This document shows positions 29,219 to 34,427 of a DNA stretch of 36,308 bases, piece by piece. The notes under the pieces were generated by a model. It was not told the origin of the DNA. It ran no database searches and saw only the letters and a list, made by a program, of their open reading frames with translations. Source of the DNA: Armatimonadota bacterium (GTDB lineage Bacteria > Armatimonadota > Armatimonadia > Armatimonadales > Armatimonadaceae). Each line of letters starts with the position of its first letter. Position 1 is the first letter of the stretch. The stretch is from the NCBI GenBank assembly GCA_043754515.1, contig JAYUUO010000157.1, positions 1 through 36,308 of the forward strand. Reading direction: 5' to 3'. Made by a program: the position numbers and the translations under genes.

Positions 29219-30580
29219 GAGGTAGTTTCAAAAATCGGTTCGAGATGCCGACAACTATATCGTGACAGACACCCCCCACTCAAACAACGACCGAGAAGCG
29301 TTTACTCCACCCATGCAAGCATGGGTACCCGCTTTCCCCATACTGGCTGGAGATCCACAACAAACTGTTCCCCTTGCTCGCGGAAGCCGCCCAAGAAAAA
29401 CCGACCGAGCAAATCCAGCGGGTCGCCCAGATACTGGAAATCGTGCGCATCAAGGAGTCTGTATTGGTGAAAAAAGGAGGGGGCAAAGGCAGACCGCAAG
29501 TAGATCGCCGCCCCCTCGCGTGCGCCTTCGTCGCTAAAGCGGTTCTTAATCAAGAAAATCGCCTCGGGCGATTTCTCTGACTACCTGAAACCAAGACCCT
29601 GATCGAGCAACTGCGACAGAACCTCTGACTCCGTAAAGTCTGCGGCATGGATAGTGTGCCGAGTAAGGCAACCTTTAGCCGTGCCTTCTCGTTGTTCTGC
29701 AAGCATGGGTTGGGAGATAAGGTTCATGAAGCCCTCATAGACCAGTTCGTTTCCGGTAAGGGGGATGATCGCCCTATCGTCTTGCACGTCAGCCACGGCG
29801 GAGAAATCGCCCCGAGCGATTTTCTTGATTCGACAGCGGTTGAGTCACGCGAGCGCGGGGGCGGGAAGCGAATCAAGCAAGCACAGGAGAAAAAAACGCG
29901 GCAGACCCTGTGAAGGGGAAGAACGTCCCCCGCCTGAGCCGACCCGCTTGGAGCGTCAAGTGGACTTGCCCTTCGGCGAAGCGTTCTCCGAGTTGCCGAC
30001 GGCTTGTAGCTGGGGAATCAAGCGCGACACGGACGGGAATACCTACCGCTGGCGCGTCGGACAAAACGGATTTTGTCCTGTCTACAAGGCGCATATCTCG
30101 TGGGGGGACAATATGATGCCGTTAGGCTGTTTCATCAGTTCCGCTTCGCTCCACGATAGTCAGGTCGGACAATTTCGCCGCGAAACTTCCTGTCTATCGC
30201 GTTGATGAAACGCTTAACGACATCGGTCACGAGTTTTTATGATCTGATGGGCAGTGCCTACGACGCGGGCAACATCCGTAAGGTGAGCGAAGCATTGGGT
30301 CATGTACCCATCATTGACGCGAACCCGCGACGTGGGAAAAGGGAAGCCGTAGGGGACCCGGTTGCGTGTTATACGTTCGTGCCGGCGGAGCGCGTTCGCT
30401 AGAAAGAGCGCGGTAACGCGGAGCGTGGAAACAGTCGCCTGAAAGACTCTTTCGGCTTGCGTTTTGTACGGGTGCGCGGACACGACAAAGTACACTTGCA
30501 CATCATGTTCGGGATTATTGCTTTGTTCGCCGACCAGTTGCTTAAGCCACTGGTCTGAAAGACATTTTTGAAACTACCTC
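29219..30580 (+). mobile_element. Insertion sequence, 1362 bp, perfect 17-bp terminal inverted repeats, probable TT target duplication
   Basis: GAGGTAGTTTCAAAAAT (29219-29235) / ATTTTTGAAACTACCTC (30564-30580); TT flanks both ends; encloses a DDE transposase. Confidence 0.9.
29262..30558 (+). pseudogene. DDE transposase (DUF772 + DDE_Tnp_1 type; family IS5/IS1182/ISNCY-like, not resolved), inactivated
   Basis: AFVAKAVL, VPSKATFSRAF, DSTAVE, SASLHDSQV, DLMGSAYD (second Asp to Gly), GHVPIIDANPRRG, ERGNSRLKDSFG, RVRG..KV..HIMFG; stops, frameshifts and hairpin insertions. Confidence 0.88.
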
Positions 30581-34159: not shown

Positions 34160-34427
34160 AGGAACGGCGTCATCGCCCTCCAAAAAAAGAAGTAGGAGTT
34201 ATACGGGTACGCATTCTTGCGCCGGAGTTCCTCCGTCCGAAGAACGTCCGGCAACGGAGTTGCCTATTCGGGCAATCGTCAAAACAAGTTTTGACTGTAC
34301 TTGTTTTGCCGATGACGTGGGTTTCAACCCGCGTTTTTCGGTTGCGTAACTCCTATGAAACAGAGCCAGGACATCCGTGCCCCGGCTCTCGAACTGCTGC
34401 GGCTCCAACCGCCGGACAAATCGACCC

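Follow-up and report, generated by a model that had tools for sequence, protein, structure and literature searches.

Short hairpin insertions concentrated in the mobile DNA of an Armatimonadota genome

The question raised by this locus is how a single dead insertion sequence (IS) came to be interrupted by five short DNA hairpins. The IS occupies 29219-30580 of the window, which is the whole 36,308-nt stretch analysed, and is bounded by perfect 17-bp terminal inverted repeats, with TT on both outer flanks. It is present as a single copy in its own assembly (G000; 5.13 Mb in 313 contigs, 92.7% complete). In profile searches its C-terminal piece matches DDE families, weakly, and open reading frames of its homologues match the IS1182 and IS5 NCBIfam models below their cut-offs. 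The element appears to consist of a DDE transposase gene between terminal inverted repeats and can be called IS5/IS1182-like, with every family score under the cut-off. The gene is dead: in addition to the inserts it contains premature stops at 29626 and 30400, the former one among several point lesions unconnected with the inserts. In the homologues L036 (254-1385) and L034 (243-1390) the transposase is laid out in two overlapping frames around an A-run, an arrangement that suggests a programmed frameshift. The features of the host IS are as follows.

29219..30580, plus strand: dead IS5/IS1182-like element (DDE group) that carries the inserts between perfect 17-bp terminal inverted repeats
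29219..29235, plus strand: left terminal inverted repeat, from the inverted-repeat match
30564..30580, minus strand: right terminal inverted repeat, from the inverted-repeat match
29626..29628, plus strand: premature TGA (Trp in homologue L033), from the alignment
30400-30402, plus strand: premature TAG

The five inserts, numbered as in the preliminary description of this DNA, lie within it as follows.

29308..29331, minus strand: insert 5, a CGGGTA-type hairpin of 24 nt, net +19, with ~5 target bases replaced (homologue alignment)
29551..29580, minus strand: insert 1, T plus a 29-nt CAGAG...CTTG core, antisense to the transposase (homologue alignment)
29798..29827, plus strand: insert 2, G plus a 29-nt core, in frame (+10 codons), directly before the Asp of S-H-D-S-T
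30057..30081, plus strand: insert 3, T plus a 23-nt core plus T, net +24 (homologue alignment)
30165..30193, plus strand: insert 4, T plus a 27-nt core plus T, substituting for 3 target bases (net +26) and causing a frameshift

That these segments are insertions is evident from related elements. Homologue L033, which spans nearly the whole host IS (70% over 1327 columns, gaps included), lacks all five; L036 lacks inserts 1-4, and L036, L014, L096 and L098 agree over the parts they cover. Relative to these empty homologues the net lengths are +30 for inserts 1 and 2, +24 for insert 3, +26 for insert 4 and +19 for insert 5, the last measured against L033, L098, L096 and L036. The interrupted motifs are VLN-LPE (insert 1), SH-DST (insert 2), WR-GYK (insert 3) and QV-AI (insert 4). 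Insert 1 introduces an in-frame TGA (29578-29580) into the transposase and has an exact copy at an unrelated site (C143:12119), and insert 3 replaces one G of the conserved Gly codon in W-R-G-Y-K. Logan contigs from another sample of the same study (X4) run gap-free over insert 5, most of insert 1, most of insert 2, and inserts 3 and 4. In a different study (X5) inserts 2 and 3 are present and 26 nt are missing at insert 4, in a more diverged segment; in a third (X6) insert 2 is present. Both X5 and X6 additionally have the family of inserts 1 and 2 (family A) beside a flank unlike the host IS. Because homologous IS copies lack the segments and other samples carry them, all five are confirmed as genuine hairpin insertions of 24-30 bases and not artefacts of assembly. 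The preliminary description, which had reported hairpin segments interrupting the transposase at these five places, is borne out, as is its remark that inserts 1 and 2 are near-identical in opposed orientation (25/30 identical).

Insert 5 stands apart. Its relatives are one copy at C119:8738 and one within a MITE family, and for insert 5 and this MITE relative the net length, judged by eye, is the core minus 5. It belongs to a separate sub-class, with a CGGGTA tail, that replaces about 5 target bases.

The class to which the hairpins belong is larger than the five described. The class comprises 154 curated copies at 97 independent sites, with 90 distinct sequences, the frame (T)C-hairpin-TG and cores of 20-33 nt. 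For curation, lists were merged and doubtful rows removed by eye: 3/55 from one list, and from a list of 183 rows six named look-alikes and most rows without an AAA/TTT core. Family A has 26 matches in G000 at no more than 2 mismatches and 6 in the related genome G002; no match occurs in the remaining 39 of 40 relatives or with a reversed control. Searching the genome for the strict scaffold common to inserts 1-4, C-RGA-S-stem-TCY-TG, gives 39 occurrences, as opposed to 0-5 for each of 14 control flank variants. Gaps between paralogues uncovered more families, with other stems. In a location-blind scan, C before and TG after the hairpin were found in 231 of 1410 records with an AAA/TTT core, not deduplicated; the mirror cell held 220, and 38/48 cells at most 29.

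The constant part of the class is (T)C...TG alone. The outer three pairs differ between copies yet stay fully complementary (AGA/TCT, GGA/TCC, GGC/GCC, GGT/ACC, GTC/GAC, GCA/TGC, GCG/CGC and others); palindrome correction can produce complementary stems without selection. The GTCGGA-like head described earlier shrinks to (T)C, with G two bases before the C in 22/55 copies, and of the GATT that inserts 1 and 2 were said to abut, the G is the element's own last base and ATT is no fixed target.

Outside this genome the class is sparse. A second family pattern matches 14 times in G000 and 3 times in G003, the other 30 of 31 family members having no match. A loose pattern run over 301 genomes of the phylum gives 20 matches in G000 and at most 4 in any of the 300 others, and among the matches listed from outside G000 most, judged by eye, are without complementary stems. 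Among the relatives, the class is found only in two congeners; G001, of the same genus and 85% complete, has no clear copy. Scanning genome contigs for family A yielded 4 loci, all in one Armatimonadota MAG and not counted as additional independent support, and two element patterns had 0 matches in viral contigs.

Elements of the class also nest in one another, and the window contains an example in addition to the IS.

34277..34297, plus strand: sixth class member of the window, with a CGTC...ACTG core, nested in a degenerate CGGC-type core
about 34269-34311, minus strand: degenerate CGGC-type core hosting the sixth member, within a MITE at about 34193-34355

This MITE, of ~160-230 bp with TAGGAGTTACGCGG ends (34193-34355 in the window), has about 51 loci in G000. 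Its copies record the stepwise gain of at least three nested hairpin inserts, the C35 copy having none and those on C27 and C156 having extra ones.

The flanks of the 97 independent sites define the target. Upstream, C prevails at -5 (63/97, p 2e-12), a purine at -3 (A 55 and G 23 of 97, p 8e-18) and T at -1 (63/97); downstream, the base at +1 is A in 32 and T in 31 of 97, and +3 favours a pyrimidine (C 45, T 36 of 97; p 2e-9). The resulting two-sided consensus, C-N-R-N-x-N-Y, is alike in the AGA, GGC, GGT and GGA families, and is constant while the hairpin foot differs between families. Element base 2 covaries weakly with the flank at -1 to -3 (nominal p 0.001-0.005 among 56 tests). The symmetry of the bias is partial (-5 versus +5, p 7e-4; -1 versus +1, p 8e-6), and with regard to a target in the form of a mini-hairpin there is no excess complementarity between -k and +k over the 97 sites. 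Both orientations occur on one contig (8 plus and 7 minus on C143, 9 versus 3 on C138), and local GC skew, itself weak, is positive at 42/87 sites. It had been proposed that the inserts sit beside a fixed short motif and lack a multi-base target duplication; the latter holds for the dispersed family, and in place of the former there is a degenerate, two-sided bias.

Empty sites in paralogues and relatives reveal what happens at the join. One target base, x, is exchanged for two junction bases in 28/34 comparisons (14/19 in a first set and 14/15 in a second, whose query assumed one base); the other 6/34, insert 4 among them, violate the one-base rule or are ambiguous. The net insertion length is the core plus one base, and x may be kept, doubled or replaced. 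It is kept on at least one side in 14/28 cases and on neither side in 14/28, although some 'replaced' bases may be later substitutions, the empty sites being taken from homologues of 60-95% identity. The cases of loss include two conserved Gly codons (insert 3 and C147:7721) and a MITE with ~90% identical flanks. The bases at -1 and +1 are equal in 41/97 sites against 27 expected, and 27/97 have T/T junctions.

Where the hairpins lie is equally distinctive. At least 66/97 independent sites fall within IS genes, prophage-like DNA or MITEs. By scripted labelling, transposase matches lie no more than 400 nt away from 30 of the 97; the prophage-like contigs C138 and C143 account for 20, other contigs of phage or plasmid type for 6, a MITE for 4 and the neighbourhood of RHS for 1, which leaves 36 unlabelled. 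Of these 36, 5 were reassigned to transposases on further matches, so that 31/97 are without a label. Frames flanking inserts match transposases of the IS630, IS21, IS3/IS481, IS701, ISL3, IS4/IS5, IS66 and IS256 groups, and RHS repeats, phage methylases, capsids and ParB as well. The enrichment in mobile DNA is plain in independent sites per 100 kb, with gene and spacer classes defined by a home-made codon model: 26.5 on C138 and C143, 23.5 in repeated non-genic DNA and 2.8 in atypical DNA, as opposed to 1.5 in spacers between typical genes and 0.2 in typical genes. An IS mask (0.7% of the genome, 30/97 sites) was built from insert-holding families, and its ratio is thus inflated and circular. 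The spacers between typical genes contain 4/97 sites, 3 of which adjoin phage capsid genes, and host spacers hold at most 1/97 sites in 262 kb. The ~200-bp MITE adjoins typical genes at 42/51 loci; host spacers therefore tolerate insertions.

Inserts are also clustered. Four in the 1362 bp of the host IS have a Poisson p of about 1e-8 at either genome-wide or spacer density, and four IS relics (on C1, C74, C157 and C184) carry 3-5 separate inserts in 0.3-0.7 kb. The host IS is not enriched in target motifs relative to the genome (120 versus 159 per kb). Inserts at the same site are found in paralogous copies of IS and RHS elements, and G000 and G002 have one in common, in an IS630-like gene; some inserts are therefore old and have been multiplied by their carriers. 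Both the class and its enrichment in mobile DNA are well established.

The contigs C138 and C143 contain 27/154 inserts. They are probably joined through a type I-E CRISPR array (G000:C138 and C143, L100-L103). C138 has a complete cas operon with cas1 and cas2; C143 has the CRISPR array, a HerA-like helicase, an ATPase, an integrase, broken methylases, and phage head and tail genes. The two together are probably a prophage-like element with its own CRISPR-Cas. A Mu-like assignment of C143 was dropped, its left part consisting of the type I-E CRISPR array and the HerA-like and ATPase genes, followed by the integrase, methylase and head/tail genes.

Searches of G000 and its relatives found no candidate for an enzyme that moves the class, and given that the assembly is 92.7% complete the absence of such a gene is not proven. 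Y1 genes are present, with 4 matches in G000 and 16 in G002. It had been suggested that a RAYT or TnpA(Y1) gene flanked by the same hairpins might be found; in a search of G000 and five relatives, the hairpins flank none of the 4 Y1 loci of the genome and none of 20 Y1 loci of relatives (genomes 82-98% complete). Y2_Tnp had no match in 5 genomes, with its control equally blank. Among the same number of genomes there is no small GIY-YIG gene of the Ssn type, the sole match in each being UvrC-sized or a contig-end fragment, and Ku was absent from 5/5 genomes searched. G000 has a retron-like reverse transcriptase (RT), of a family present in 21/31 other genomes of the bacterial family. None of 99 CRISPR spacers contains an element, and none matches a reconstructed empty site.

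Two Y1 genes are of interest in themselves. L001 (G000:C279:5123-5460) is a RAYT-like gene split into two frames, without flanking hairpins of the class. The IS200/IS605 TnpA at L137:1465-1899 (G002:C327), otherwise open, carries a 30-nt in-frame hairpin insert directly before the helix bearing the catalytic Tyr; another copy, on C371, gives a match of equal length.

The hairpins have probably been inserted by a trans-acting enzyme. In the reading preferred here, to which we give a probability of roughly 0.4, this enzyme would recognise the hairpin foot and join the hairpin, with a stagger of one base, to a double-stranded C-N-R-N-x-N-Y target. The element would have one unpaired base at each end and the target would be cut with a 1-nt stagger, so that each junction would be a one-base mismatch. 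Each mismatch might then be fixed to either the target base or the element base, which would leave x kept on the left, kept on the right, doubled or replaced, at constant length. The enzyme would reach mobile DNA preferentially, and copies in host genes would be removed by purifying selection. In the host IS, inserts would have accumulated one by one, and in-frame copies may ride in transposase genes and be multiplied along with them. A one-base staggered double-strand join fits better than the guide chemistry of IS200 and REP systems because the target is two-sided, the foot does not covary with it, and the one-base rule is obeyed in 28/34 comparisons. We know of no prokaryotic transposase with a 1-nt stagger.

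Other routes can be envisaged for the chemistry. The preliminary description had favoured an HUH/Y1 single-strand transposase, of the IS200/IS605 or RAYT type, that would move the folded strand in trans and cut after the invariant TG. The size of the elements, the bulged bases of the folded hairpins, the invariant 3' TG, the lack of multi-base duplication and an asymmetric C four bases before the join all agree with such an enzyme, and the pairing of 5' RGA with 3' TCY in the AGA and GGA families resembles that of a guide with its cleavage site, a pattern familiar from IS608 and ISDra2; Y1 genes, moreover, exist in both genomes. However, the target is unchanged while the foot changes, and the downstream bias at +3 and the apparent loss of x in 14/28 cases are unexpected from clean single-strand transfer. 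No clear orientation bias is seen (8 versus 7 inserts on C143, 9 versus 3 on C138, and 42/87 sites with positive local skew, itself weak), tags are rare, and no flanked Y1 gene occurs among the loci scanned. Of that model, the minimal mobile hairpins without multi-base duplication and their strong concentration in mobile DNA find support, and the fixed motif and the HUH/Y1 hallmarks in their stated form do not; an HUH enzyme is possible for these hairpins, though not the best fit, and we consider it doubtful. An RNA-mediated route, reportedly proposed for the small dispersed repeats (SDRs) of Nostoc, would have an RT copy short hairpin transcripts into DNA breaks, with untemplated A additions giving T-rich junctions. 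T at -1 in 63/97 sites and the 27/97 T/T junctions are in its favour, many cores resemble intrinsic terminators, and a retron-like RT is at hand. Yet a strict length of core plus one is hard to obtain by untemplated additions, nearly all of the 21/31 other family genomes with the RT are without matches to the tested element patterns, no Ku was found in the five genomes searched, and the inserts lie in both orientations relative to host genes, all of which makes this route quite unlikely.

The location of the inserts might not reflect targeting at all, a view that is compatible with any chemistry: insertion would be genome-wide, and purifying selection plus carriage and multiplication by mobile elements would account for the distribution. 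The same-site inserts common to paralogous IS and RHS copies and to G000 and G002, and the depletion of typical genes to 0.2 per 100 kb, are what such a history predicts. Against it, duplicates are already removed from the counts of independent sites, host spacers are nearly empty although the MITE occupies them, the relics on C1, C74, C157 and C184 hold several separate inserts each, and the IS is not richer in target motifs than the genome as a whole. We take the absence of targeting to be a serious possibility, short of an even chance. The remaining alternative, local template-switch mutation (inverted duplication) or assembly error, is suggested by the hairpin shape and by a 40-nt inverted triplication of local sequence at C238:6678. 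The insert sequences are unrelated to their empty sites, however, and the exact copy of insert 1 lies at an unrelated site; template switching is ruled out for inserts 1-4 by such evidence and for insert 5 by its copy at C119:8738, and other samples contain the inserts, which leaves this explanation extremely improbable.

How, then, does the class relate to known short repeats? No published description of it was found in a literature search that excluded supplements and the original Nostoc SDR paper. The closest known kind is the SDRs of Nostoc, likened here through their general features. SDR1-8 of Nostoc and its relatives, reported by Elhai et al. 2008, are mobile repeats of 21-27 nt; several families are said to have a common fold despite little sequence similarity, to occur inside minitransposons and nested in one another, and to have no known enzyme. 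The class resembles them in its short length, in a common fold across unrelated sequences and in nesting. Unlike them, it belongs to another phylum, has no fixed palindromic target such as HIP1, and combines an invariant C...TG frame with the exchange of one base at the join and a strong concentration in IS and prophage-like DNA. SDR5 and HIP1 are discussed in PMC5861425 and PMC4390886, and no SDR-like repeat is reported in HIP1-rich cyanobacteria outside the Nostocaceae (PMC5861425). Passages of PMC3184786 and PMC2884548 contain nothing specific to the class.

REPs have GTAG or CGTC tags, are mainly extragenic and are tied to a Y1 gene (PMC3733652, PMC3116915, PMC8266576, PMC6006769). Like REPs, the class consists of short imperfect palindromes in many copies, and it shares with REP/REPIN systems and their RAYT a size of 20-40 nt, many families per genome and occasional in-frame intragenic copies. 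REPs and REPINs often form doublets and flank their RAYT gene; the members of this class are singletons. At the hairpin foot, on either strand, REP tags are found at few of the 97 sites (GTAG 3, GGAG 2, CGTC 4, TGTC 6), and with 4/97 sites in spacers between typical genes, 3 of them phage, host spacers are not the main location of the class. A tetranucleotide guide 5' of the palindrome sets where IS200/IS605 and REP systems cut (PMC8266576, PMC6006769). The class is like IS200/IS605 ends in having a short bulged hairpin beside the element end and no target duplication, and unlike them in being a single 20-33-nt hairpin with a target that does not track the foot sequence and a target base that is often exchanged; no guide tetranucleotide is apparent, the flank consensus being equal across families with different feet. 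An interpretation of the elements as solo IS605 right ends was abandoned after the flank analysis, which gave one target consensus for different feet. The hairpin repeats of 20-50 nt (SRM/NTS) that accompany Ssn GIY-YIG nucleases (PMC11893778) are of similar size, and the SRM motif published there matches 0/97 sites. Junctions without multi-base duplication set the class apart from DDE-mobilised MITEs, which share terminal inverted repeats with an autonomous IS and duplicate 2 or more target bases, and copies have unrelated flanks on both sides, with no larger element seen.

For SDRs, CGTC repeats and similar elements it is still to be explained how non-coding pieces of DNA of oligonucleotide size spread, and this genome offers 97 independent sites, a target consensus and a testable junction rule. 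If the preference for mobile DNA is enzymatic, it would amount to a new mode of IS and prophage inactivation, and the enzyme responsible would be a compact device for inserting short hairpins; if selection alone is responsible, the class still offers a clean natural record of very small mobile elements from a phylum that has received little study. An extension of the enzymatic reading, which we regard as unlikely, is that the class is a hyperparasite of 21-30 bases living on mobile DNA, or a host system making use of it, with a putative enzyme inserting minimal hairpins selectively into transposase genes, prophages and MITEs. Unlikely on the same terms, the one-base-exchange reaction would differ from the DDE, HUH and recombinase chemistry described to date and would progressively disable its targets.

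Several minor observations were made in the same assemblies. The inverted triplication at G000:C238:6678-6721, 40 nt long, is an event of the template-switch type and is unrelated to the hairpin class. The retron-like RT of G000 (L125, C263:16200-19835) is family-wide, 470 aa long and lies directly downstream of a gene with SWIM and BRCT domains. A second CRISPR type is present in G000, at C61:627-5342 (71 repeats), C77 and C302. Three contigs of the assembly, C172, C87 and C260, are matched by eight spacers at 94-100% and probably represent phage or plasmid DNA that is resident or was co-binned. Lastly, Cas1 is represented by two profile matches ~90 codons apart in one frame of 453-462 aa (G000:C61:6011-7114 and G002:C94:4426-5496), and the gap between them is possibly an intein or an inserted domain.
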